DNA of 64,000 nt. Source: Blepharisma stoltei ATCC 30299. Its lineage: Eukaryota > Protista > Ciliophora. A program made the position numbers and the translations under genes. This document shows positions 7,943 to 43,586 of the stretch, piece by piece (positions within the stretch are counted from its first letter, which is position 1; the number at the start of each line of letters is the position of its first letter). The notes beneath the pieces were generated by a model, which saw only the letters and a list, made by a program, of their open reading frames with translations, was not told where the DNA came from and made no database searches. The stretch covers positions 1 to 64,000 of the forward strand of contig CBFDEM010000033.1 in the NCBI GenBank assembly GCA_965603825.1, given 5' to 3'.

Positions 7943-10900
7943 TTAATGGATTTGATCTTTGATTTTTCTGAAGAGTGAATCTTTTTGCGACAGCTCCTCA
8001 GGGCTCCCTATTTCTGCAGCAATTCCATCTTGCATCACAATAATAAAGTCGCTTTCCATAACTGTTATGAGTCTGTGGGCGATAGTGAGAATAGTACAGC
8101 CGAAAAACTTTCCTTTTATTAAATTCTGGATTTCATGATCACTCTCCTGATCAACTCCAGCAGTTGCTTCGTCAAATAAAATAACTTTTGTATTGGCAAG
8201 CATGGCTCTCGCTATACTGATGAGCTGTTTTTCTCCAGCTGATAAATTTGACCCACTACCTTTGATATCGTGGTCAATTGAGAATTTTGAGAGATTTACT
8301 TCTTCCAACGCCTTTTTTATTTCATCATCTGATTTCAGTTGACACGGATCTAAATTCTTTCTTAGAGTGGAAGAAAAGACTAATGGATCTTGAGGTACTA
8401 GTGTAATTGCTGACCTCAGTTTGTCTAACCCTATATGTGATATGTCTACGCCGTCAATAAAAATTATTCCTTTATCGATTTCAACAATTCTCAAAAGGGC
8501 AAGAAAAACAGAAGACTTTCCGCTTCCAGTTCGCCCTACAAATCCTATTCGTTTTGATCCTTTGATTTTAAAGTTTACTCCTTTTAAAATATATGGTGTA
8601 TCAGGCCTGTATTTCATGAAAACATTTCTGAATTCAATTGATGGATTCTCTGGCCAACGAAATAAATTTTTGTCAGTCTGTAATTGGCTTGGCTTTTCTA
8701 CAGGAATGTTCATATACTGTTCGGCCCTTTCGACTGAGATCACTGAGTTCTCCAAGTATGCTAAATCAAAAATCAAATAGCTCATATCAATTGGTAAAGG
8801 AATAACATAAGCCAAACATAATCCAACAGTTGCGGCAGATAGATCATACCTTAGTAGAATAATTGTACAAAGCAAAAGGAATATAAATGCAGAAGTCAAA
8901 AGTCCAAGATATAAATTAATCCAGCAATAGCATGCTCCGAGTGAATAAAGTATCCTAGAGTTGCTGTTTAATAAATCATAATTTTTAGCATGAAAGACCT
9001 CAGTTTGTTTGAATGCCCGAATAAGCTTAGCCCCAGTAAGTGTTTCAGAAAAGTGATTAAGAATTGGAGACTTTGAGATTGCCTCCAGTCTTGTCAATTC
9101 CCTTGAAGCTCCCAAGTATGCATCTTTTATTTTTAGCGCAAAGTAAATGAATAAAGGCAAGGCAATAACCAGGTGTGGAAAATATATAAGAGCCATAAAA
9201 ATCGCTGCGCTAGCCTCTGACAGCATAACCAATGTGTAGCCAATAACAAGTGGAACAGTCGCATCGATTTTATCTATATCTTTGCTTAGCCTGTTCAAAA
9301 TTCTCCCTGTAGGTGTAACATCATAGAAAAGATTGATTGGTGCCCTTATAAAAGATTCAATCATTTTGTCGTGAATGTTTTGAGAAGCTCTGTTCCCGAG
9401 AAAATAATTGAGGAAAATTGCTCTTAAAGGTACAAATATGCTACCACCAACTCTTAAGCATAAATAAAGTACTAGTAGTGTGGAAGTGTCACTGGGATTG
9501 CTGCTTCATTCTTTTAGAACTATATCTCCAGATACTCGAGTAGTAGTCCAGAGAGCCACAGATAAGCAAGTTAAAGCAAGCATAGTGTATCCGCCTGAGA
9601 ATTTAAAATAGTCCTTATACACTTTACTGCTTACTTTTCCTGACTCTTTTTCCTCGTCTTCTATCAGCTTTTTAGGCTCATGGGGAATTTCTTGGGGTTC
9701 AGAATTATCCTTCTCAATAAGTGATTCTTGAATGCTCAAAGTAGCAGGCTCAGAAATTTGGCTTATTTTTCCATCTTCTAAAACAATGATACGATCCACT
9801 TTGTCTAAGATATTCAAGCGGTGGGTAACAAGAATTCGTGTTTTGTTAGAGAGTAGATTAAGAAAACAGTTATTCATAATGGAATTGGCTACAAAATTGT
9901 CAACAGAGCTTAAAGGATCATCAAGGAGATAAATTTCTTTATCAGCATATACAGCCCTTGCTAGGCAAACTCTAGCCTTTTGTCCCCCGCTTAAATTGAT
10001 ACCTTTTTCTCCTATTTCTGTAAAATCTTTATCAGGTAATGAACTTATATCTTGAGACAAGCAGCATGCATCTATGACTTTCATGTATCAGCTCTCATTA
10101 TATGGCTTTCCAAATAAAATATTATTCCTTAGGCTGTCGTTTTGGAGCCAAGATTCTAAAGAAGGAGCATACGCAATTTGATCATTTACACAAATCTCCC
10201 CAGATTCGACCTTGAGCTCTCCCATAATTGCATTGAGAAGTGATGACTTCCCGCTCCCAACTGGCCCAACAATAGCGATGAATTCATTTTTCTTTAAGTT
10301 TAGGTTAATACAATTTAATAGCGTTTTGCCTTCACACTCAAATGAACAATTTTTGATTTCGACAGTATCACCTTTAGGAAGTTGTCTCAATTCGCTGACA
10401 TCAAGGAACTTTTGCACTCTTTTTATGCTTACAAAGCATAAAATTAAGCTAGTCAGTATGTAAGGAACTTCTTGAAGAGAGTCCTGAAGAATGAGCAAAG
10501 TTGATAAAGTTACAAAGGTGACTTCTGGATTTAGTGACTTTTCCATAATTTGTGTGTAGTAGACGAATACAGAAGCGGCTGTTAAACTTGGGGTTGACCA
10601 GAATAAATATGATGCTCCAGAGTACGCTAAATTGTAAGATTTTAGAGAAGAAAGCTCTCTTTTCCTGATATCATGGATTAGATTTTTGAAGAAGTTTTCT
10701 CATACGTAAGCTTTGATGATTTTGATATTTCTGACGAGTTGAGAAGACATCTCGATCCTTTCATCTTTTATAGCCATCGTTTTACTTTGAAACTTCTTTA
10801 ATAGCGAAGAAGAAAAATAGCTCAAAGATAAGCACATCAACAATACTCCTAATCCAGCAAAAACTGCGGATCCAACTTGCAAGTAGATTAAATAAATAGA

Positions 10901-11533
10901 TAAGACAGCTTGAACCGGGCATGAGATGAATAGCCCAAGGTCGATGAACACAGAGTAAATCTTTTCTGCGTCTACTTCTAGAACGTTGACTCCAAGCCCT
11001 TCAGGGACTTTTGAAGCTTTTAAGACTTTTCCATAAATAGCATTTGCCAAGGAATTTTTTACTCTGATCTCAATAAGTTTGCTATTAAATTTCACTCTTC
11101 CTTTTAATATCTGATTTAGTATATGAATAGCTGAAAAGGCTAATAAAATATAGACCCCAGTCGTGAGAGGCTTTTCTTCAGACTCGATGTAAGAGATGAG
11201 CCATTTTATAAGTAAGGGAGCTGACAGATCTAACAATGCACATGCATTTCCTAGAAAAATAGATAAAAGTATAAGTTTTAGGTTGGAAAGTATAATGGCT
11301 CAAAAAAGCTTGTGTTTTTTCAGGTTCTGGGTGAGTTCTTCATTCTCTGCCTTTTCTTCATCTGGTAGAGGGTAAGTGTCATCAGAAGTAACATCTTTCT
11401 TTTTACTTAAATCAAGGATCGATTTTACTCATGTGAAGAAAGTCATTGAAAAAAATCCTGGCTTTTTTGTGGAGCGTGCTGGAAAATATGTGTAAGAGCT
11501 TTGATTTAAATTGTTGAGAGGTTGAAGTTCCAT
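7943..11533 (-). CDS. ABCC/MRP-type ABC transporter, copy 1 (1196 aa, TMD-NBD-TMD-NBD)
   Basis: Single frame with TGA=W. NBD1 GPVGSGKS/LSGGQ/LLDD; NBD2 GRTGSGKS/LSAGEKQ/DEAT; FYDVTPTGRILNR motif. Confidence 0.93.
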
Positions 11534-12114: not shown

Positions 12115-15100
12115 TTAATGAATCTGATCTTTGATTTTTCTGAAGAGTGAATCTTTTTGCAGCAACTCCTCAGGGTTCCCTATTTCTGCAGCAATTCCAT
12201 CTTGCATCACAATAATAAAGTCGTTTTCCATAACTGTTATGAGTCTGTGGGCGATAGTGAGAATAGTGCAGCCGAAAATCTTTCCTTTTATTAAATTCTG
12301 GATTTCATGATCACTCTCTTGATCAACTCCAGCAGTTGCTTCGTCAAATAAAATAACTTTTGTATTGGCAAGCATGGCTCTCGCTATACTGATGAGCTGT
12401 TTTTCTCCAGCTGATAAATTTGACCCACTACCTTTGATATCGTGGTCAATTGAGAATTTTGAGAGATTTACTTCTTCCAACGCCTTTTTTATTTCATCAT
12501 CTGATTTCAGTTGACACGGATCTAAATTCTTTCTTAGAGTGGAAGAAAAGACTAATGGATCTTGAGGTACTAGTGTAATTGCTGACCTCAGTTTGTCTAA
12601 CCCTATATGTGATATGTCTACGCCGTCAATAAAAATTATTCCTTTATCGATTTCAACAATTCTTAAAAGGGCAAGAAATACAGAAGACTTTCCACTTCCA
12701 GTCCGCCCTACAAATCCTATTCGTTTTGATCCTTCGATTTTAAAGTTTACTCCTTTTAAAATATATGGTGTATCAGGTCTATATTTCATGAAAACGTTTC
12801 TGAATTCAATTGATGGATTCTCTGGCCACCGAACTAAATTTTTATCTGTCGGCAACTGACTTGGCTTTTCCGCAGGAATGTTCATATACTGTTCAGCTCT
12901 TTCAACTGAGATTACTGAATTTTCCAAATATGCTCAATCAAAAATCAAATAATGCATGTCTATTGGCAAGGGAACAACATAAGCTAGACATAATCCAACA
13001 GTTGCAGCAGATAGATCGTTTCTTAGCATAATAATTGCAAAAAGCAAAATAAATATAAAGGCAGAACTCAGAAGTCCAAGATATAAGTTAATTCAGCACT
13101 CACATGCTCCTAGTCAATATAAGATTTTTGAATTTTTATTCAATAAATTATAGTTTTTAGCGTGAAAATTTTCGGTTTGTTTAAAGGCTCGAATGAGTTT
13201 AGCGCCGGATAATGTTTCAGAAAAGTGATTGAGAATTGGAGACTTTGAGATTGCCTCCAGTCTTGTCAATTCCCTTGAAGCTCCTAAGTACGCATCTTTT
13301 ATCTTTAGCGCAAAGTAAATGAATAAAGGCAATGCGAAAACTAGATATGGAATATATATGAGAGCCATTAAAATTACAGCACCGGTCTCTCCCAGCAGGA
13401 CTATTATGTAACCAATAGCATTAGGCACACTCCCATCAATCTCATCCATGTCCTTGCTTAGTCTATTTAAAATTCTCCCTATTGGTGTCACGTCATAGAA
13501 TAAATTGACTGGTGCCCTTGAGAAAGATTCTATCATTTTGTCATGAATAGCTTGAGAAGCTCGGATTCCAAGGATATAATTGAGTAAAATCGCTCTTAAA
13601 GGTATTAAAATGTCTCCTCCAATCCTTAAGCATAAATATAAAACTAGAAGTGTGAATGCATCACTAGGATTGCTGCTTCATTCTTTCAGGACTATGTCTC
13701 CAGACATTCGAGTTGCAGTTCAGAGAACTATGGATATACAAGCTAAAACTAGTATAGTGTATCCGCCTGAGAATTTAAAGTAGTCCTTATATACTTTACT
13801 GCTTACTTTTCCTGACTCTTTTTCTTCATCTTCTATCAGCTTTTTAGGTTCATGGGGAATTTCTTGGGGTTTAGAATTATCCTTCTCGATAAGTGATTCT
13901 TGAATACTCAAAGAAGCAGGCTCAGAAATTTGGCTTATTTTTCCATCTTCTAAAACAATAATACGATCCACTTTGTCTAAGATATTCAAGCGGTGAGTAA
14001 CAAGAATTCGTGTCTTGTTAGAGAGGAGATTAAGAAAACAGTTATTCATTATTGAGCTGGCTACAAAATTGTCAACAGAGCTTAGCGGATCATCAAGGAG
14101 ATAGATTTCTTTATCAGCATACACAGCTCTTGCTAAGCATACTCGAGCTTTTTGTCCCCCGCTTAAATTGATACCTTTTTCTCCTATTTCTGTTAAATCT
14201 TTATCAGGTAACGAATTTATATCTTGTGCTAGCGAGCAAGCGTCTATGACTTTTGAGTACCAGCTCTCATTATATGGCTTTCCAAATAAAATATTATTCC
14301 TCAAACTGTCGTTTTGGAGCCAAGATTCCAAAGAAGGCGCATACGCAATTTGGTCACTTACACGAATCTCCCCAGATTTGACCTTGAGCTCTCCCATAAT
14401 TGCATTGAGAAGTGATGACTTCCCGCTCCCAACTGGCCCAACAATAGCGATGAATTCATTTTTCTTTAAGTTTAGGCTAATGTCATTTAATAGCGTTTTG
14501 CCTTCACACTCAAATGAACAATTTTTGATTTCGACAGTATCGCCTTTAGGAAGTTCACTCAAGTCACTGACATCAAGGAACTTTTGCACTCTTTTTATGC
14601 TTACAAAGCATAAAATTAAGCTAGTTAGTATATAAGGAAATACTTGAAGAGAGTCCTGAAGAATGATCAAAGTCGTTAAAGTTACAAAGGTGACTCCTGG
14701 ATTTAGTGACTCTCCCATAATTTGTGTGTAGTAGATAAATACAGATGCTGCTGTTATGCTTGGAGTTGACCAGAATAAATATGATGAGGCTGAATAAGCT
14801 AAATGATACGATTTTAGAGAAGAAAGTTCTCTTTTCCTGATATCATGGATTAGATTTTTGAAGAAGTTTTCTCATACATAGGCTTTGATAATTTTGATAT
14901 TTCCTAAGAATTGAGAAGATACTTCTATCCTTTCATCTTTTATTGTCATCAATTTAGTTTGGTATTTCTCAAGCAATGAAGAGGAAAAATAGCTTAGCAC
15001 CAGACACATTAGCATGACTCCTAATCCAGCAAAAATCGCAGATCCAACTTGCAGGTAGATTAAATAAATCGATAAAACAGCTTGAACTGGGCATGAGATG

Positions 15101-15705
15101 AAGAGCCCAAGGTCGATGAATACAGAGTAAATCTTTTCTGCGTCCACCTCAAGAATGTTTACTCCAAGGCCTTCAGGGGGTTTTGAAGCTTTTAATACTT
15201 TCATATAAATAGCATTTGACAAAGAATTTTTTACTCTGATCTCAATGAGCATGTCATTAAATTTCACTTTTCCTTTTAGTATCTGATTTAGTATATTAAC
15301 AATTGAAAAGCTAGATAAAATATAGATCCCTGTCATAAGAGGCTTCTCATCAGACTCAATATAAGAAATGAGTCAATCAATAAACAACGGAGCTGATAGA
15401 TCTAGCAATGCACATACATTTCCTAGAAAAACAGATAAAAGTATCAGTTTTATATTGGAACGTATAATGGCTCAAAAAAGCTTGTGCTTTTTCAAGTTCT
15501 TGGTAAGTTCTTCGTTCTCTGCTTTTTCTCCATCTGGGAGAGGGTAAGTATCGTCTACGGTAACATCTTTCTTTTTACTTAAATCAAGGATCGATTTTAC
15601 TCATGTGAAGAAAGTCTTTGAAAAAAATCCTGGCTTTTTTGTGGAAAGCGCTGGAAAATATGTGTAAGAGCTTTGGCTTAAATTATTAAGAGGCTGAAGC
15701 TCCAT
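12115..15705 (-). CDS. ABCC/MRP-type ABC transporter, copy 2 (1196 aa), tandem paralog
   Basis: Same length and motifs as copy 1 at an offset of 4172 nt; TGA/TGG interchange at aligned Trp (ESW-Y, CW-IN). Confidence 0.93.
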
Positions 15706-18264: not shown

Positions 18265-21200
18265 ATGTCCAGTTTGCAAAATCCCGCTACCAAGCACGCT
18301 CAACCGGATTCCATGGCTATTTACCAAGAAGTAAACCCAGAAACTCCTCAAAAGCGCCTTCGTCCTGCTCATGCCTCTGAATCTGACCTCAAAGAAAGCC
18401 TGGAAAATCTTGACTTAAACTCCAGTATCCGATCCAAAACTCGAGCAGAGCTTGAGCAAAAGCTCTTTTCTGACGAGGCAATCCCTCGCAAACAAGCTAA
18501 AATAGCATCTGACACTGAAAGCGATGTCTCCATGGAGCCCGGAGAAATCCCAGAACACCTCGGAGAAAACTTTGACGTCGCTGCTGAGATCTTTGGACCA
18601 GCCCCAGAGCCAGGCCAAGCTGAAGCAAGAAAAATCGAATTTGAGCCTTATGACTACATCAGCCAGTATGGAACAGCAGAAGATATCATGCTAAAGCAGC
18701 TTGACATTCCGGAGCGTTTACAAATTTCCCTAAAAAACCGCGAATATCCAACTGAAGCTGAGCTGAACTTAGAAGAAGAGTGGCTCTTGCAAAGGCTTCT
18801 TCAAAAGAATCCTCATGGGATTAAAGGAGCAATCAAAGCAAAAATCCATACTTTCTTGTTACTATATAGGGTAGAAAAATATGAAATTTCTTTCATATAT
18901 AAATACAGGCTCGATGTCCTGAAGCCAGAAATAGAAACTGAAAATGACTTACTAGAGCTTTGGGCGTGGGATAAAGATTGGGGCTTCTTGTACTCAACAA
19001 AACAAAATCTGCAAAATTTACTTAATTCAGCTGCAGCTAATGGAGATGCATTATCAAAAGGAAGGCCTCTGAATGATGGTGACAAAGTTTTAGTTTCAGA
19101 AACTCCTGGGATTTTGCCTGACTGTGTAAGCGCACTGCTAAACTCTCATTCAACAAATGACTATTTGCTAGAAATAAATGACCTCGAAGCCTATATAAAA
19201 GCTTATGTATATACTCACCAAGATGGAAGTAGAATGCTGAGAAAAGCATATAACCCAGTCCAAGAGTCCAGAATGAACAAGCTCAATGAATTCGCTGCAA
19301 AAGCAGGCCTAAGTCCTTCACAGATCTCAGAGAATCTAAAACAAAACAAACAAGTCCACAAACCTCTTAAGCCAGACCTGAAGCCACAAGGTTTAGCATT
19401 CAAACTGCGCAGCCCTACCTTTTCAGAAGAAATTCAAGTCATCACAAATGCTTGCAATCTCATGCAGGCCGAACTTTCTAATTTCCCAGCATTTAGGAGC
19501 TTCATACGAGAAGAATACAAAAAGCATGTGAAAATTTATACATCGCCAACTGAGAAAGGCAAAACAGTTCTGGACGTGTTTCACCCATTCTATGGAGTCA
19601 AGAACCTCGCCAATGGTAAACCAATAGACTCTTGGTCACCTGAGCTTTGGGGTCAAGCCTTAAAATGTGAAAGCTCTGATCTAATAAAAATTGAGTTCAA
19701 ACTGCCATGGGAAGACGCCAAAGAAGACAAGATTTTCAACTTGGTTAAAGGACTCTACACAACAGTCACAACTGAAAGCGTCGAATCAGAATGGAACCAG
19801 TTCAGAACTGAAGTTTTGAAGCTCACATTTGCACAGCTCTATAAAGAGTTTGAAGACAGCTTCAAGAAACAACTGCTTTCAAAAAGTGAAGACTGGATTA
19901 TTGAACAAATTCAAAGCAAGTTTAGTGAAATGCTGAATAGGCCAAGCTACATTGTGGAAGGGTCAAATAATCCATGTGTTGTTTCTATAGTAACTGACCC
20001 TGATGTAAAATTCCTAGGCCAGACAGCTGTGGTGGCGCTCAAAAGAAATGGGGATATTATTGACATAGCTTTGCTCAACACTTTGATGGTGCGGAAACCT
20101 GAAGAATTGCATGAAACTGACAAGGCAAGATACTTAAAAGAAAGATCTCAATTCATCAACCTGCTTTTAGCCAGCAAGCCAAATGCGATCATCATTGGGG
20201 CCAACTCGCTGCAAAGCGTACAGCTAAGAAGATCTATTGGACTGCTGGCTGAAGCTTTAACTGTGGATAGCTTTAACGAAATGGAAATTGGTGTAGAAGT
20301 AGACAAAGCCCAGCTTTTCAGCAAAACCCCTCTTATCACTATGGGAGATACCAACATCGCCAAACTCTTTGCCACATCCCAAAGATCAATCAAGATGTGT
20401 GAGAATCATAAAGTTTTGACCAGGATGGCTATTTCGCTAGGAAGATCTTTGCAAAACCCTAAAGCTGAAATTCTAGGCTTATGGAACGACCCAAATGAGT
20501 TGCAGATCAAATATCTAAGTCTGCATCCTTTAGAGTCCTTAGCTAATGAGCACAAAAAGCTGGCAAGCATGGAAATTGTTGCTGTTTGCGTCTGCTCACA
20601 CTCTGGGGTTGACATTAACGAAGTCATGCATAAGCCGCATTTATATGGACTTTTGTCATTTATCCCTGGGCTAGGACCTGTGCGAGCTTACTCATTAATA
20701 GAAAGCATCAAGCATATATGTGGTGGTACTTTGACTACAAGACAAGAAATTCTTACTAAAAGAATCCTCCCTCAGAGAGTCTGCGAAAATGCTTGTGGAT
20801 TCATAAAAATCCCTTACGAGCTTGGAAAAACTAATCCATTGGACTCCACCAGAATTCACCCTGAATACTACGAGCTAGCTGCAATAGTCTCAAAAAGCGC
20901 TTTAAACGACGAGCAGGTCCCTGACGAGCTTCTAATCCACGAAATCCTTAGGTCTCCTCAGAAAATGCAAGAACTAGACCTTGATTATTACGCTCAAATG
21001 CAGGCCGAAAAAGGCTTCAAAAACATGAAAGAGACCCTAGAGTTTATCGTTTCAGAGCTCAGCTCTCCATTTGGAAACCCCAAAAAACGGTACTTTGAGC
21101 CAACTCCAGAAGAACTCTTATACATGTGCACAAATGAAACCCCCAGCACTCTTAAGCGTGGAAGTGTAGTCCAGGTTATGGTTCTTGGCTATGACGAGCG

Positions 21201-23820
21201 TCGTGAATGTTTAAGGTGTCTGCTAGAATGTGAGCTAGAAGGGATTATCGAGCAAAGGCACCTTGTAGAAGGAAGGATCCCTAATGAAGCAGACCTGAAA
21301 AAATTTGTGAAGGGTGGAAAACTCACTGCAAGAATCATTGAAGTCACAGCTAAGCTGCGGTCACAAAAAGACTTATTCTTTAAAATGAAATTAAGCTTGC
21401 TTCCAGACGACATCATAAACCACGGCAAGTTTATTAACCTCACTCTTGATGAAGCCTTTATCATAGAAGAAGGCGACTGGACTGAAAAAACAGTGATGGA
21501 GGACGAGCAGAAAACTGGCCAAAAATACGTCCCAAGGGTAATAAACCACTTGAAATATAGAAATGTTGGGATGAGGACTGCATGTGATGAGCTCTCGTCA
21601 AAAGAAATTGGAGATTTTATATTCAGACCCTCAAGTCGTGGGCAAGATCACTTAACATGCACGTGGAAATTTTATGATTATATATATGCACATCTCGATA
21701 TCATAGAAGAAGGAAAGCCATCTGCCAATATGCTGGGATCCAGATTTCGCATTGGGACTGAAGTATATGAGTCTCTGCAAGATGCTGTTGATCGCTATAT
21801 AGCACCTTGTGAAAAACTTGTAAGAGAAGCTATCACTCATCCAAAATTCAAAGAAACAAACTCAGCCAGCCTAACAGTTTTAGAAAATTTGATTTCCCAA
21901 GAAAAGACTACGAGGCCGACAACAGTTCCTTATTACTTTGCTGTGACCCCTCATTATCCTCAATATTTTGTTCTTTTATATCAAAAAACGGACCAAATTA
22001 TTAAAGAATTCATCAAGGTCAAGCCTAAAGGTCTCTTTTTCCATGAAGCCTACCATCCGAATATGGGATTTTTAATAAGCTGGTTTAAGCGCCACTGCAA
22101 TGATCTTTCTTATTTAAGCCAGCTCTCAAGATCTAAACCTCCAAACATTGATACTTCAAATGCTTTTCTCACCCAAAACAAACCTCCAGAGCAAGACGAA
22201 AACGCTCAAGTCGTGTCCCAAACTCCTGCTAGAACTCCTGGGTGGGGCAATGCAACACCTTATGATAAAACTCCGCATATTGGTGCTCAGGAATGGTCTG
22301 GCGGCAAAGACTTAACTAAAACTCCAAGAGCTGATGAGTGGGGAAGCACAAGCAATTTTGAAAGCTGGGGCGGCGAAGAAAAGAAGCAAGAAGCAAGCAA
22401 TTCTGCCCCTAAAAATTCTGGAGGATGGGGAGGAAGCTCTGGTGCAAGTCAGCCACCAGCACAAAGCTCTGGAGGCTGGGGAGGAGGAAACTCTAGTGCA
22501 AGCCAACAAAGCTCAGGAGGCTGGGGAGGAGGTGGCGAAGAAAACAAACAGAGCTCAGGCGGATGGGGTGGAAGCAGCCAAGGCGGCCAAAGTTCTGGAG
22601 CTTCATGGGGAGGATCTCAAGAAAAATCAGGCGGAAGCTGGGGAGAGTCATCTGGAGAATCTTGGGGCTCATCAGCTCCACAAGTTCCGTCCACAAATTG
22701 GGGTGGTTCTGAGGATAATGACCAGTCAGCAGACAGAGGCTCAAGAGGAGGCCGCGGAGGCAGAGGAAGAGGAAGGGGATGCTTCAAATGTGGTCAGGAA
22801 GGTCATATGTCTAAAGACTGCCCAAATCCAGGAGAAAATAAACCTAAAGGCTGCTTTAAATGTGGTCAGGAAGGCCATATGTCAAGAGAATGTCCAAATC
22901 CAGGCGAAAGCAAACCTAAAGGCTGCTTTAAGTGCGGCCAAGAAGGCCATATGTCAAGAGAATGTCCAAATCCAGGCGAAAGTAAACCTAAAGGCTGTTT
23001 CAAATGTGGCCAAGAAGGGCATATGTCAAGAGAATGCCCCAACCCAGGCGAAAGCAAACCTAAAGGCTGCTTTAAATGTGGCCAAGAAGGCCATATGTCA
23101 AGAGAATGCCCCAACCCAGGTGAAAGCAAACCTAAAGGCTGCTTTAAATGTGGACAAGAAGGCCACATGTCAAGAGACTGTCCAAATCCAGGAGAAAACA
23201 GAGGAAGAGGCAGAGGCCGAGGAAGAGGACGAAGAGAATCTGGAGATAACGACAGAGAAAACTCTAACTCAGGGTCTTCTGGCTGGGCTGACTCAGGAAG
23301 TTCTTCTGCAGGATGGGGTAGCTCAGGAGGTTCTAGTGGTGGATGGGGGGATTCTGGAAGCACTACTCAAGCAAGCTCATCTGGATGGGGAGACGCAGGA
23401 AGTTCTACACAAGCAAGCTCAGGTGGCTGGGGTGGGAGTACTGAAACTACTCAATCCTCATCCAGTTCTTGGGGTGGAAGTACAACTCAGCCTGCTTCTT
23501 CTGGAGGCTGGGGTGATTCATCAACGCCTGCACCAACTACAAGCGGAGGAGGAGGATGGGGTGGTTCATCATCGACAAGTTCGCAGCCAACTTCAAGTAC
23601 CCCTGCAAGCTCTTCATGGGGAAACCCTCCAGCAGAGCAAGCTCCAGCTTCGTCATCTTGGAATTCAGCACCAGCCCCTCAGCAGTCATCATGAAACTCA
23701 ACACCAGCTCAAAGCAATGAAAAGCCTGGTGAAAGCAATACTTCTTCTTGGGGAGCCAAACCTGCTGAAAGCTCTGGAAACTCGTGGGGAAACAGTTCAA
23801 GTGGCTCTTCATGGGGATAA
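18265..23820 (+). CDS. SPT6: Transcription elongation factor Spt6 with C-terminal WG/GW tail, RGG boxes and six CCHC zinc knuckles (1851 aa)
   Basis: Spt6 core motifs ([22 protein letters not shown] Hh[13 protein letters not shown]1, SH2 [11 protein letters not shown]). Frame continues through TGA 23692-94 to TAA 23818-20. Confidence 0.93.
22777..23190 (+). repeat. Six 72-nt coding repeats encoding [24 protein letters not shown] (CX2CX4HX4C)
   Basis: Direct inspection; units differ mainly at synonymous positions. Confidence 0.95.
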
Positions 23821-24077
23821 TAAAGATCCTTATTAAATTGAATTTTTAGCTATAAGCATTTTTAAAATAAATTTCAGTTATATGGATCAATCTGGCATCT
23901 AAAACACTTAATTTATTGCAATGGCAAATGTTTTTATTTAAATTTTAAATCACTTTATTTAAAGGTAAGCTAATGATATATATTAACTATAATGAGAATT
24001 ATTTAAAGTTTTAATTTAATAAAAATAGGCATATAAATTAAGCAATACAGATTCTAGTAGTTTTAATAAAAACATCT

Positions 24078-26582: not shown

Positions 26583-26816
26583 ATGGGTTGCTCTGTAATA
26601 AGATCATATCATGCGTCTATGAATCCTACTTGTGAAGTGTCTAACAATAAATTTTTTAAACCAAATGAAAGCCAGATTAATCAAATAAGCAACTGCAATG
26701 AGTCAAATGCAGATTATTCCAAAAGTTTTTCAAAGTCAAAAGTATTCGTTTTCAATGTAAACGCTGGGCAATACATTATTGAGATCTCTGCGCCGAAGTC
26801 TCTGGAGAAGATATAG
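26583..26816 (+). CDS. Small protein with MGC acylation-type N-terminus
   Basis: AAAATG start, 77 aa, TAG stop. Confidence 0.55.
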   Translation: MGCSVIRSYHASMNPTCEVSNNKFFKPNESQINQISNCNESNADYSKSFSKSKVFVFNVNAGQYIIEISAPKSLEKI

Positions 26817-27564
26817 TACATTGCACTCTTTTATTATTTGCACTTTATGCACTATCTTTTTGGCATGTGAAGATCCAAACTTCACAGACCTTCAAATGCC
26901 AAAAAAAATTATTCATAGAGTGTCGATCTGAAAATAGTGAAATGCATTATAGAAGATATCGAGATCAGCGATTTATGCTAATTTAGCAATTTTGATTGTA
27001 CACAAACTATGTGAGTATATGGGTTAAAATTATGCGTTTATTTTAAATTCATTTTTATTGATAATTTAAATTTGAGCTTGTGATTATTGGCTGTAACAGT
27101 ATTTAATCATTTCTATAAAGGAGATGAAAAATAAGATAGTTGTAATTGATCTTAAAAATGAGCTGAAAGCCTGCTGAAGACTATATTCGCTAAAAATATT
27201 AAAAATAAAACTCAAAAAAGTAAACTATTAGATTTGAAATAGATCCCTAACTATATGCTTTGTGACCCTGAAAGTAATCAATAAAAACCAAAATTTATTA
27301 AAAATTTTCCTATCTGACAGAAGTATATTCCTGATGTCTCTATGCTGTAACTCATTGTGTGATTTAAAATTATCTCTGGATAATTCCTAAATATAGATTT
27401 AGGGTCTCTTTAGAAATATTATTAAAAGGTAGATTTTTAAAAATATTTATAAATATTGTAAGGAAGCTTATGAAAATAAGAATTTTAAATGCACAGATTA
27501 TAAATTGAGATAATAGCATCTAATCAAGCTATTTTGACTTGTCTTATGCATGTGCTTTTATATT

Positions 27565-28896
27565 ATGGAAACTTTCCCTATAAAGATTTTTGAATCTTTT
27601 TTACAAGATTTTCAAATTGAAGATCTCAGGAATTTTTGCAAAAGCCTTAATCTGTTTGGTTCTGGAAGTCGATTCGAGGTTATTGCTCGATTATATAATT
27701 ATTACAGCACTAAATCAAAATCCCAAGATCCCTCTGAACTAATTCACCAACTCTGCAAAAGCCAGAATTGCCAAGTGCCTCGGCTAAACTGCATTTGCAA
27801 CCAAAAATTCTCCCGCCTTCAGCTTATCCAGTGTTCTCTTTGCCGTAGCTTTCAGCACAAGCAATGCATCAAAAATCCTAACATAATCCCATATGAATGC
27901 TTCATTTGTCAGCTTCACCAAATGAATCCCTTAGAAGAGATCAAAGAATTCCTAGTTCCCCCTTTTTTATGCGAGAATGGGATGCAGAGATCGCCTCATT
28001 TTACAAAAAATTTTGACTACTCCGAAGAATTTCGTAAAAAAATCCAGCTTGGGAATGGAAATTTCCAAATCCAAGTAAGATGCATCAAGCTAGAAGGAGA
28101 CCCTTATACTCAGCAATGACCTTTAGCGGGCTGTCTCATAATTAATGATAAATTAGCAATGCTATTTCAACCCCCAAATATAAATGCAAAAAAGCGAAAA
28201 GACCAGCCTTTAAATATAACCACAATTCTGAGATCAGACTCACCAAACAATATTTGCCTCTTGCAGGATGAAAAAATTGGCAAGTTTATATGTGGAGTCG
28301 CTTTGATACAAGAGAAAAGCAACGAAAGTCTAATTGAAGAAATTAAAAGCCAGCCAGGAGTATCTGTGGATGAAGGCAAGGTATTTATTAATACAATTTT
28401 AGCTCAAGGAGACTCTGATGTAGTCTCCGACAGCATCAAATTTTCTATAAAATGTCCAATCACCATGACTTTAGTTGAAATCCCAGTGAGAGGAATAAGA
28501 TGCACTCACATCCCCTGCTTCAATTTAGGACCTTATATTAATCTGCAGAGATACTCCAAAGTCAATAGATGAAAATGCCCAATTTGTAAGAAGCCAGTAA
28601 ATAAAATGACAATAGATAGATTTGTCGAGCAAATGATAATTGCAGCAAGGACGATAGAAAATGCGAGCCAGATTGAGCTATTCTCGAATGGGACGTTTAG
28701 GATCATTTTGGATGAAATTAATAACTCAGATTCAGAGCAAAGTGACGAAGAAATCAAGAAAAGGCGAAAACTGAAAGAGGAAGAAGAAAAAGTCCCTGAT
28801 GAAAGTATCAAAATGGATAAAGAAATCCCATTAAGCAGCAGGCCAAATAAGAAAGACGGCAAGGCATCACCTGAAATCATAGAGATTTCTGACTAA
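27565..28896 (+). CDS. SIZ1: SIZ/PIAS-type SUMO E3 ligase (SAP, PHD, PINIT-like, SP-RING, C-terminal SIM)
   Basis: LRNFCKSLNLFGSGSRFEVIARL (SAP); CIC...QC..C...QH..C PHD; CPIT...IPVRG..CTHIPCF...(TGA=W)KCPIC SP-RING; EIIEISD. Alternative ATG at 27550. Confidence 0.9.
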
Positions 28897-28983: not shown

Positions 28984-29529
28984 ATGGGACTGATAGAAAA
29001 ACTCCAACAATGCATGGAATTCATCGCGACGAAGTATTTTCTGGTATGTAATAATTAGATTTGGTATTTATCCACTGCGATATTCTTTATCGTTCTGCTG
29101 TACTCACAGCTTTTCTCTCCAAAAAAAGTTTTTATCTCTTGAATCCTGTCATCTGGCATACAGTTTATAATCCGCCTCTACTACTTAAGCCACGAGGAGT
29201 CTCCTGAGCAAGAGCGCCAACGGTACATAGAGCTTGCCATTGAAATCTTGCGAAATTACCGCGGAGAGCTACTTTCTTTATATGCGGCATCATTACGAAA
29301 TGAAGACAATAACGAAGGGGCAGCACAAGAGGCTATCATTGATCTGCCACACATAGAAGCTATAGAGAAAGGCTACTGCTGTATCTGCATGAGCGATATT
29401 GTAGAAAGCCAACTTATAACAAAAATCAACTGCGTGCATACTTTTCATTCTGAATGTATAGATACCTGGCTTGAAACTCGAGCTGTTTGCCCTATATGTA
29501 AAGTGAAAATTCCTGCATCAATAATCTAA
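28984..29529 (+). CDS. Membrane-anchored RING-H2 E3 ligase
   Basis: Two hydrophobic segments, one TGA, one intron; CCIC...CVHTFHSECIDTWL...CPICK. Confidence 0.87.
29044..29058 (+). other. 15-nt intron GTATGTAATAATTAG
   Basis: Removes in-frame TAG; A10. Confidence 0.9.
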
Positions 29530-40778: not shown

Positions 40779-42116
40779 ATGTGGGTTCACCTTCTTTTAA
40801 TAGGAACAGCCCTGAGTGCACCTTTAGCTGATTTAGTAAAAAATCGTCCAGGGCTCCCAGCAGACTCTCCACCTAATTTCGATACATATTCTGGTTATCT
40901 TAACATTCCTAACTCAAATGGAAAATCATTACATTACATCCTCGTTGAAAGTCAAAATAACCCAGCGACTGATCCTTTGCTACTATGGCTTAATGGAGGC
41001 CCAGGCTGTTCTTCACTAGACGGCTTTATCTATGAGCATGGCCCTTATGTATTTCCAGACGAAGGCACTACTCTTTTTAAAAATCAATGGTCTTGGAATA
41101 CCAATGCTAGTGTCATCTACCTTGAAGCACCAGCTGGGGTGGGCTGGTCCGTTATGGGAGACCTTTCTAACAATAGCACAGACGATGAAATCACTGCCCA
41201 CGACAGCCTTCAAGCAATTTTACAATTTTTCAGGAAATTCCCTGAATACAGATACCACGATTTTTACATCTCAGGAGAAAGCTATGCAGGCATTTATGTC
41301 CCTACGCTAGCATACAATGTCCTTATGTATAACAACTATAGTCCTCACAATAGCATTAACCTAAAAGGCATTGCTGTTGGAAATGGAATTACAGATTGGA
41401 ATGTGGACTCTACCCCAGCCTTTATGAAACTAGCCTGGACCCATGCTCTTATTGGCTATGAATGGTATGAAAAATTAGTCGCTGATTGTGACAATCTCAA
41501 TGACTGGAGCAGTGAAGCCTGCAATAATGACGTTTATTATATAGAAGCCACTCTTCTAAACAATATTAATATTTATGATGTATATGGCCCTTGCATTTAT
41601 CATAACTCGACACAAGCACAGCTGGACAATAATAGATACCTGAAATTTGTATTAGATCAAAATCCAAATTTGGGAATAATCCCTCCATGCTGTGCATGGC
41701 AAGGCGCTTATGAGTATCTCCAAAGCCAAGCTGTAAGGACTGCTTTTAATATACCGAATAGTGTACAGCAGTGGACTTTTTGTGTGAATTTGGACTATCA
41801 GGATGACTATCTTCATGGCTCAGTCTATATATATCCTTACTTGATACGTGCAGGGCTACGAATTTTGGTCTACTCAGGAGATGTCGATGGGTCAGTACCA
41901 TTTATAGGGACAAGGGAATGGATTAACAGCTTAAATTTAGATGTGAAACAAAGTTATGCTTCTTGGTATGTTGATGAACAAGTCGCTGGATATTATATAG
42001 AATATGAAGGGCTGACTTGGGTAACTGTAAAAGGAGCAGGACATATGGTGCCACAGTGGAAAAGACCTCAAGCTTGGCATATGATTAATTCTTTCTTAAG
42101 TGGAGTTTCACCATAA
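40779..42116 (+). CDS. Secreted serine carboxypeptidase (S10), copy 1
   Basis: WLNGGPGCSS, GESYAG, YSGDVD, GAGHMVP; signal peptide. Confidence 0.96.
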   Translation: MWVHLLLIGTALSAPLADLVKNRPGLPADSPPNFDTYSGYLNIPNSNGKSLHYILVESQNNPATDPLLLWLNGGPGCSSLDGFIYEHGPYVFPDEGTTLFKNQWSWNTNASVIYLEAPAGVGWSVMGDLSNNSTDDEITAHDSLQAILQFFRKFPEYRYHDFYISGESYAGIYVPTLAYNVLMYNNYSPHNSINLKGIAVGNGITDWNVDSTPAFMKLAWTHALIGYEWYEKLVADCDNLNDWSSEACNNDVYYIEATLLNNINIYDVYGPCIYHNSTQAQLDNNRYLKFVLDQNPNLGIIPPCCAWQGAYEYLQSQAVRTAFNIPNSVQQWTFCVNLDYQDDYLHGSVYIYPYLIRAGLRILVYSGDVDGSVPFIGTREWINSLNLDVKQSYASWYVDEQVAGYYIEYEGLTWVTVKGAGHMVPQWKRPQAWHMINSFLSGVSP

Positions 42117-42251: not shown

Positions 42252-43586
42252 ATGTGGGTTCTTCTTATTTTAGTAGAAACAGTTTTAGGTGCACCTTTAG
42301 CTGACTTAGTCAAAAATCGGCCAGGACTTCCACCAGACTCTCCTCCCAATTTCGATACATATTCTGGATACCTTGATATTCCCAATTCTAACGGAAAATC
42401 ATTACACTATGTTCTTGTTGAAAGCCAAAATAACCCAGCAACAGATCCTTTGCTACTATGACTTAATGGAGGTCCAGGCTGCTCTTCATTAGATGGCTTT
42501 GCCTATGAGCATGGCCCTTATGTATTTCCTGATGAGGGCACAACTCTTTTTAAGAATCAGTGGTCTTGGAATACCAATGCCAGCGTCTTATACCTTGAAT
42601 CCCCAGCTGGTGTTGGCTTCTCAATTTTGGGAGACCCTTCAAATAATAGCACCGATGATGAAATTGCTGCTCATGATAATCTTCTTGCCATTGTCCAATT
42701 TTTCAGAAAGTTTCCTGAGTATAGAAACCATGAGTTTTATATTTCAGGGGAAAGCTATGCAGGAATGTATTTACCTTACTTAGCCTATAACATTCTAATG
42801 TATAACAACTATAGTCCTCACAATATTAACCTCAAAGGAATGATAATTGGAGGTCCAGCTACTGATTTTACATATGATTTCACCCCAGCTTTGATGAAAT
42901 TACTCTGAACTCATGCTCTAATTGATTATAACTGGTATTATAAACTAGTAAATGACTGTGATAATTTCAATGAATGGGATGGCGAAGCTTGTGGAAATGA
43001 CACAAATTATATACAAACTGAGCTCCTAAGTAACTTGAATTATTATAATATTTATGGGCCTTGCATATATCAAAATGATACTAGAGCACAAAAGGATAAC
43101 AATATTTTCCTCAGAGCTGCATTAGATTCAATGGCTTCTCCAGGAATTATTCCACCATGTGCAGCTTGGGAAGGCGCTTATGACTATTTCTTAAATGATA
43201 CAGTAAGAAAAGCATTCAATATCCCAGCGAATGTCCAGCCTTGGACTTTTTGTATTTTCCTTGACTATATTTCAGATTATCAGCATGGGTCAGTCTTTTT
43301 GTATCCTTTTCTTATTCGTTCTAGCTTGCGCATATGGATTTATTCAGGAGATGCTGATGGGTCTACACCTTTTATTGGTACCAGAGAGTGGATAACTGGC
43401 TTAAATCTAAATGTGAAGCAGCCGTATACTTCATGATATGTAGATGATCAAGTGGCTGGGTTTTATACTGAGTATGAAGGACTTACCTGGGTGCTGGTGA
43501 AGGGTGGTGGGCATATGGTTCCACAGTGGAAGCGTCCACAAGCATGGCACATAATCAATTCGTTTTTAAGTGGTGTTTCACTTTAA
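42252..43586 (+). CDS. Secreted serine carboxypeptidase (S10), copy 2 (444 aa)
   Basis: Colinear with copy 1; TGAs at 42459, 42906 and 43434 align with TGG in copy 1. Confidence 0.94.

Follow-up and report, generated by a model that had tools for sequence, protein, structure and literature searches.

What is an Argonaute-hook tail, interrupted by zinc knuckles, doing on a transcription elongation factor of a ciliate? The question is raised by a gene on the forward strand of a 64,000-nucleotide stretch of Blepharisma stoltei ATCC 30299 DNA (contig CBFDEM010000033.1, positions 1 to 64,000; hereafter the window). It encodes a homologue of Spt6 with a long C-terminal tail rich in Trp-Gly (WG) and Gly-Trp (GW) pairs. 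We consider it likely, with a probability of about 0.6, that this protein holds Piwi-small RNA complexes beside nascent RNA polymerase II (Pol II) transcripts in nuclear development. The main value of the locus lies in the link that it exposes: Tetrahymena CnjB is a degenerate Spt6.

An Spt6 gene with a WG/GW and zinc knuckle tail

The open reading frame is intact and ends with TAA TAA; it has an in-frame stop just upstream of its ATG, and is open only if TGA is read as Trp. Its features are as follows.

18265..23820, +, Spt6 gene with WG/CCHC tail, 1,851 amino acids (open reading frame, Pfam, contig coverage)
18265..18615, +, short, weakly acidic N-terminal region, 117 amino acids (composition; no SPT6_acidic match)
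18751..21351, +, Spt6 core: HtH, YqgF, HhH (HHH_7, HHH_9) and S1 (Pfam; structure model)
21493..22095, +, tandem SH2 with FRPSS at residue 1120 (SH2_2 match, E 2e-52; motif)
22219..22344, +, Thr-Pro-rich linker with a TPxIGxxEW motif (conserved motif)
22243..22704, +, first WG/GW block, 12 Trp spaced 8-20 residues apart (Trp count; shuffles)
22735..22779, +, RGG/RG box (sequence)
22780..23197, +, six CCHC zinc knuckles, 72-bp tandem repeat (Pfam; repeat analysis)
23200..23229, +, RG box with five RG (sequence)
23284..23817, +, second WG/GW block, 14 Trp, holding the TGA codon at 23692 (Trp count)

Pfam detected HTH_44 (residues 163-255), HHH_7 (748-850), HHH_9 (857-935), SH2_2 (1077-1277) and six zf-CCHC domains. 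YqgF (591-735) and S1 (953-1029) are in place but below the curated cut-off, and the Spt6 order of HtH, YqgF, HhH, S1 and tandem SH2 is present. A structure model of residues 405-1290, of modest confidence (predicted local distance difference test score 62.6), retrieved SPT6 chains of Pol II complexes in a fold search (best E 1e-44). The FRPSS motif of the SH2 region is presumably phosphate-binding and, together with the core and SH2, leads us to predict that the protein binds Pol II. The original observation of a full Spt6 core with SH2 was correct for the core and the tandem SH2, which both Pfam and the fold search recover, but "full" overstates the N-terminus. SPT6_acidic (PF14632) had no Pfam match at E ≤ 0.1, and Asp and Glu make up 19% of the N-terminal 117 amino acids, versus about 30% in short-tailed relatives. 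This weak acidity lowers the standing of the protein as a housekeeping Spt6, not as an Spt6 homologue.

The tail after residue 1290 comprises 561 amino acids with 26 Trp, 23 of which adjoin Gly (22 WG, 12 GW), as a Trp-rich WG/GW tail had been described originally; 12 Trp precede the knuckles and 14 follow them. When the knuckle-free tail was shuffled 10,000 times, the number of WG averaged 5.6 and peaked at 13, and no shuffle reached the 22 observed. By sequence this is an Argonaute hook, a Gly/Ser-rich low-complexity region in which WG/GW is repeated above chance. The knuckle array is a 72-bp tandem repeat of 5.8 copies, whose four inner units encode the same protein over 63 bases yet differ from one another at 4-9 bases, mostly at silent sites. 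Six near-identical knuckles with RG-rich flanks are present as first reported, whereas the RGG boxes said to bracket them need correction: true RGG occurs only twice, both times on the N-terminal side, and the C-terminal box consists of five RG. CCHC knuckles and RG boxes bind RNA. The tail is predicted to have two kinds of partner: Piwi/Argonaute proteins, contacted by the WG motifs, and RNA, bound by the knuckles and RG boxes. The TPxIGxxEW motif of the linker, which may provide kinase sites, was found in 13 of the 26 heterotrich-like sequences scored and in none of the seven of those with the shortest tails. An overlapping 500-codon frame at 22334-23836 was rejected as a gene and attributed to tail composition: a stop in that frame can be seeded by 6 of 501 tail codons, versus 166 of 1,290 core codons.

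Could an assembly error or stop read-through have joined an Spt6 to a separate knuckle protein? The frame does require TGA as Trp once, and no single contig bridges the whole knuckle array. We compared the window with assembled contigs of four runs (X1-X4) from one study, which we guess to be RNA: the contigs are gene-sized, and a 15-base GT..AG piece at 29043 is absent in three of the four runs, as in spliced transcripts. These contigs cover the Spt6 frame without a listed gap or joint and end only within repeats or where alleles differ; single contigs pass from the core into the first knuckles. The TGA codon (W1810) lies behind the knuckles, 41 codons before the end, and many frames near the Spt6 gene in the window also need TGA as Trp. 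The same fusion, with at least 10 WG/GW Trp and at least two knuckles, recurs in 14 of 27 heterotrich-like sequences. An artefact is therefore highly improbable and, in practice, refuted. Allele differences in the frame number 36 among those listed, 29 of them silent, with six further differences in the covered stretch. Contig depth on the gene is 31-51 in the long core contigs of X1 and X2 and several hundred to more than 1,000 in X3 and X4, the runs with the second allele, and that of neighbouring genes is below 150 in all four; we do not count depth as evidence of expression, since depth gives no ranking of genes and this gene itself served to select the runs.

CnjB as a diverged Spt6

The protein had been proposed as a possible counterpart of Tetrahymena CnjBp, which co-purifies with Twi1p and acts in scan RNA (scnRNA) selection redundantly with Wag1p (PMC5666084, PMC6562869); CnjB is co-expressed with TWI1 (PMC2636879). 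Against a profile of 54 Spt6 cores from which CnjB had been excluded, residues 167-1053 of CnjB (P0064, TTHERM_01091290) matched positions 9-894 of 1,170 with 242 bits (E 6e-70). The reversed CnjB core scored -5.7 bits on this profile, and the best shuffle 8.0 bits (196 of 200 shuffles scored). HHH_7, an Spt6 domain, is above the Pfam cut-off in CnjB of each of the three Tetrahymena species compared, and the best PDB match of CnjB is SPT6 (E 1e-14). The ESM Atlas placed the CnjB core near Tex/Spt6 clusters at 0.89-0.91, which we treat as a lead only, and a word-limited search with this core returned only three Tetrahymena proteins. Identity to the window protein is 20% over 948 aligned core residues. 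The CnjB tail has a WG block, seven CCHC knuckles and a second WG block, in the order seen in the window protein. Tandem SH2 was undetectable in CnjB, which scored below 0 bits on an SH2 profile that gives the window protein 304 bits. These matches show that the N-terminal ~900 residues of CnjB are a diverged Spt6 core that has lost its SH2 domains.

Since the HHH_7 match is already in precomputed Pfam data, this kinship was visible to anyone looking. We found no mention of it in the accessible literature, a scope that left out the primary CnjB papers and subscription journals; within that scope CnjB and Spt6 are named together only in separate contexts. The accessible passages of PMC5416832, PMC12615304, PMC5737661 and bioRxiv 10.1101/2021.12.14.471607 link neither CnjB nor the window gene to Spt6. 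The literature searched, which did not extend to the supplement of PMC9942806, contained nothing on Blepharisma Spt6, on Spt6 with Paramecium Ptiwi proteins or on zinc knuckles in ciliate Spt6.

Spread of the tail among Spt6 relatives

Of the 61 proteins returned by a search with the Spt6 core, the nearest form a heterotrich-like clade, to which two genes of Stentor coeruleus belong. SteCoe_8277 (P0009) has a 478-residue tail with 14 Trp and nine knuckles; SteCoe_24471 (P0016) has a Trp-free tail of 136 residues with two knuckles. The tail as query returned 67 proteins, among them more tailed Spt6 proteins, Stylonychia Spt6, plant SPT5L/RDM3, Vasa helicases and Tetrahymena CnjB. For a count unbiased by the tail we used a core-only profile (CnjB included), placing 133 of 150 listed sequences and dropping 17 partial ones; the ciliate clade was delimited by tree and a few named members, and some of its sequences are partial. 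Among the matches listed, 24 of the 38 sequences in this clade have at least one knuckle, 12 combine a knuckle with at least five WG/GW Trp, and eight have at least two knuckles and at least 10 WG/GW Trp. Among the 95 listed outside the clade, nine have at least five WG/GW Trp and one, from Pelomyxa schiedti, has knuckles. The WG/knuckle tail on Spt6 is therefore recurrent across ciliates (Stentor, Stylonychia and others) and not specific to heterotrichs, in agreement with the original suspicion that the architecture may not be new. The Pelomyxa protein (P0201, KAH3765056.1), from an amoebozoan, has a WG block, an RGG box, two CCHC knuckles and a second WG block, the order of the window tail.

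Long- and short-tailed copies also differ at the N-terminus. The best 30-residue N-terminal window holds 4-9 Asp/Glu in the long-tailed copies of three duplicated lineages and 14-21 in short-tailed copies with a whole N-terminus. Weakly acidic N-termini are shared by the window protein, the Stentor long copy, CnjB and three fast-evolving long-tailed sequences. The latter (P0075, P0077 and P0078; 25-33 WG/GW Trp, 5-6 knuckles) are nested among Litonotus-like sequences and are likely an independent CnjB-like specialisation.

Phylogeny of the tailed copies

Our main tree (39 sequences, 928 columns) was built with IQ-TREE in quick mode under a mixture model. Topologies were compared by approximately unbiased (AU) tests under LG+G4, with groups named after earlier trees had been seen. 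Heterotrich-like sequences form one starred clade, in which the window gene groups with the Stentor long-tailed copy, its nearest named relative (Shimodaira-Hasegawa-like approximate likelihood ratio (SH-aLRT) 100). Placing the window gene outside both Stentor copies was rejected (AU p 0.002). The heterotrich duplication is therefore likely older than the divergence of the two genera, and the window organism should have a short-tailed sister copy unless it was lost. The grouping, together with the weakly acidic N-terminus, suggests that the window gene is a specialised copy.

CnjB fell with a short-tailed group (SH-aLRT 92, unstarred, on a long branch); eight short-tailed sequences were looked up near it, and the tree held no named canonical Spt6 of Tetrahymena or Paramecium. 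A clade of CnjB, the window gene and the Stentor long copy was rejected (AU p 6e-5), as was a single ancient tailed clade (AU p 4e-38); CnjB with all heterotrich-like sequences was weakly rejected (AU p 0.041). FastTree joined CnjB to other long branches, which we take as long-branch attraction because IQ-TREE lacked that grouping. Of the proposed CnjB counterpart, then, a shared Spt6 origin and the WG-knuckle-WG tail stand, while one-to-one orthology does not, and the window protein retains the SH2 domains. On these trees and profile matches we regard the window gene as a homologue, not a one-to-one orthologue, of CnjB, and tailed and short-tailed Spt6 copies seem to have split several times.

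Predicted role in small RNA scanning

Spt6 travels with Pol II. Like those of other Spt6 proteins, the core and SH2 of the window protein would attach to elongating Pol II, and its two WG blocks would keep Piwi proteins at both flanks of the RNA-binding knuckle array. Piwi held in this way would have a higher chance of letting its small RNA pair with the emerging transcript, and such pairing could drive scnRNA selection in the old macronucleus or the marking of internal eliminated sequences in the new one. The tail was likely present on the ancestral ciliate Spt6, and several lineages would then have split the gene in two: a housekeeping copy, short-tailed and acidic, and a specialised one with a long tail. 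Among the specialised copies, which likely include the window gene, CnjB would be the most degenerate. In Blepharisma, 24-nt scnRNA-like RNAs show dynamics that fit scnRNA turnover, and Piwi is induced during development (PMC9942856, PMC9942806).

Several observations weigh against this role. Some WG-rich low-complexity proteins are false positives as Argonaute binders, and direct AGO binding had not yet been shown for plant SPT6L in 2010 (PMC2910046). Many ciliate Spt6 sequences in the core-only search have knuckles but few WG, and acidic N-termini are kept on the tailed proteins P0008, P0070 and P0099 (20, 18 and 23 Asp/Glu), so that a long tail with weak acidity is no rule. The placement of CnjB is unsure, given its long branch and odd composition, and without SH2 it may have lost Pol II binding. 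Lastly, the check for a tail-less paralogue, which in Stentor coeruleus yields a short-tailed copy, yielded none for the window organism among the 61 core-query matches; if the window gene is its sole Spt6, it must also be the housekeeping copy.

That absence favours a Piwi-independent account, in which the gene is the only, housekeeping Spt6 and its tail a general RNA-binding or condensate region, of the kind seen in Vasa-type helicases, aiding elongation or RNA processing. Vasa/DDX4 helicases also match the tail with high scores because of their knuckles and RG, and short-tailed ciliate copies retain one or two knuckles without any WG, which implies a WG-independent job for the knuckles. We nevertheless consider this account unlikely. 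The two Vasa matches counted have 1-2 WG/GW Trp versus 23 in the window tail, where WG occurs far more often than composition predicts. The homologous CnjB tail belongs to a protein proven to partner Piwi, and both the tree and the weakly acidic N-terminus suit a specialised copy.

Slightly less probable again is that the tail binds Piwi/Argonaute for another purpose: transposon silencing, vegetative RNA interference at transcribed loci, or hand-over of precursors to small-RNA production. Plants and Physarum have WG-tailed Spt6 yet no ciliate-type DNA elimination (PMC10991848, PMC9864664), the Pelomyxa Spt6 carries WG, RGG and two knuckles, and transposon silencing is raised as an alternative role of the 24-nt RNAs in PMC9942856. 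Against this stands CnjB, the one ciliate family member tested, with its part in scnRNA selection and its co-expression with TWI1. Tethering of Piwi to nascent transcripts during nuclear development remains our preferred reading.

A broader proposal, which we put forward tentatively and at a little under even odds, is that ciliate genome scanning was built on Spt6: an ancestral Piwi hook with knuckles, of which the window gene would be a near-complete living form and CnjBp an unrecognised SH2-less paralogue delivering Twi1p-scnRNA on Pol II. According to PMC5666084, which presents CnjBp as a GW-repeat protein and nothing more, the way in which Piwi-scnRNA complexes reach nascent transcripts is 'elusive'. 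Should CnjBp prove to be an Spt6 paralogue that rides on Pol II, this step gains a concrete and testable mechanism in a tractable model, one that would join up with the canonical Tetrahymena Spt6, which is SUMOylated and required on chromatin for these transcripts (PMC10830130). With the window gene, the Spt6-tail module reaches the other major ciliate branch. Since plants and amoebozoans also have WG-tailed Spt6, recruitment of Argonautes by Spt6 could be an ancient connection of elongation with nuclear RNA interference, or one that was invented more than once.

Other features of the window

Positions 1-1497 are a long telomeric array with 185 copies of an 8-base CCCTAACA-type unit. The 15-base GT..AG piece missing from three of the four runs (29043-29058) is a tiny intron. 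TGA as Trp, the CCCTAACA-type telomeric repeat and 15-base introns are traits reported for Blepharisma (PMC9942806), and we read the window as somatic genome of a Blepharisma-like heterotrich. The gene at 27550-28896 (+), 3.7 kb from that for Spt6, encodes a SAP/PINIT/SP-RING SUMO E3 ligase; Tetrahymena Spt6 is SUMOylated by an SP-RING ligase, but the nearness of the two genes here is probably chance. Judged by eye from translations, the window also holds two duplicate pairs, ABC transporter-like (7943-11533 and 12115-15705, both -) and serine carboxypeptidase-like (40779-42116, +, and 42252-43586, -). At 26810-26949, 138 bases with AT..TT ends are skipped by contigs of X3 and X4, the runs with the second allele, and are a candidate allele indel or variably kept element.

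Comparison with known systems

Tetrahymena CnjBp shares with the window protein an Spt6-derived core, a weakly acidic N-terminus and the WG-knuckles-WG tail, and differs in its lost SH2, few RG, very long branch and seven rather than six knuckles. The canonical Tetrahymena SPT6, essential, SUMOylated by Ema2 and tied to the long non-coding transcription scanned by scnRNAs, shares the Tex-like core and SH2 (PMC10830130). Unlike the window protein, it is drawn there as a low-complexity N-terminal region, Tex-like core and SH2 with no tail; we estimate that about 120 residues follow its SH2, judging by how long the supplement's final synthetic block is (400 of its 1,199 letters were visible). Stentor SteCoe_8277, annotated as hypothetical, also has a Trp-rich knuckle tail and a weakly acidic N-terminus, and the species has in addition the short-tailed paralogue SteCoe_24471.

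WG/GW platforms bind Argonautes (PMC2910046), and WG-tailed Spt6 is in print for plants, with no mention of ciliates in the accessible text (PMC10991848), and for Physarum (PMC9864664). Plant SPT6L/GTB1 is, like the window protein, a complete Spt6 with a C-terminal WG/GW platform (PMC10991848, PMC2910046), and the likeness claimed at the outset, an AGO-hook sequence at the C-terminus of Spt6 in both, holds. SPT6L works with Pol II and Pol V in DNA methylation and is described as of streptophyte origin. Unlike the window protein, the WG-tailed sequences grouping with the named plant sequence have no knuckles; the tails cannot be aligned, and WG tails are patchy outside ciliates (the 9 of 95 sequences among the matches listed). 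Plant SPT5L/KTF1/RDM3 is also an elongation factor with a WG platform, and the four SPT5L-type matches counted (P0063, P0067, P0071 and P0088) have 17-29 WG/GW Trp and 9-14 CCHC knuckles. It is built on Spt5 rather than Spt6 and serves Pol V, and its likeness to the window protein is one of tail type and likely convergent. The division into long- and short-tailed Spt6 copies has a parallel in plants, where another elongation factor is divided into SPT5 and SPT5L. Among these systems the window gene is an AGO-hook Spt6 with added knuckles, an architecture common in ciliates.

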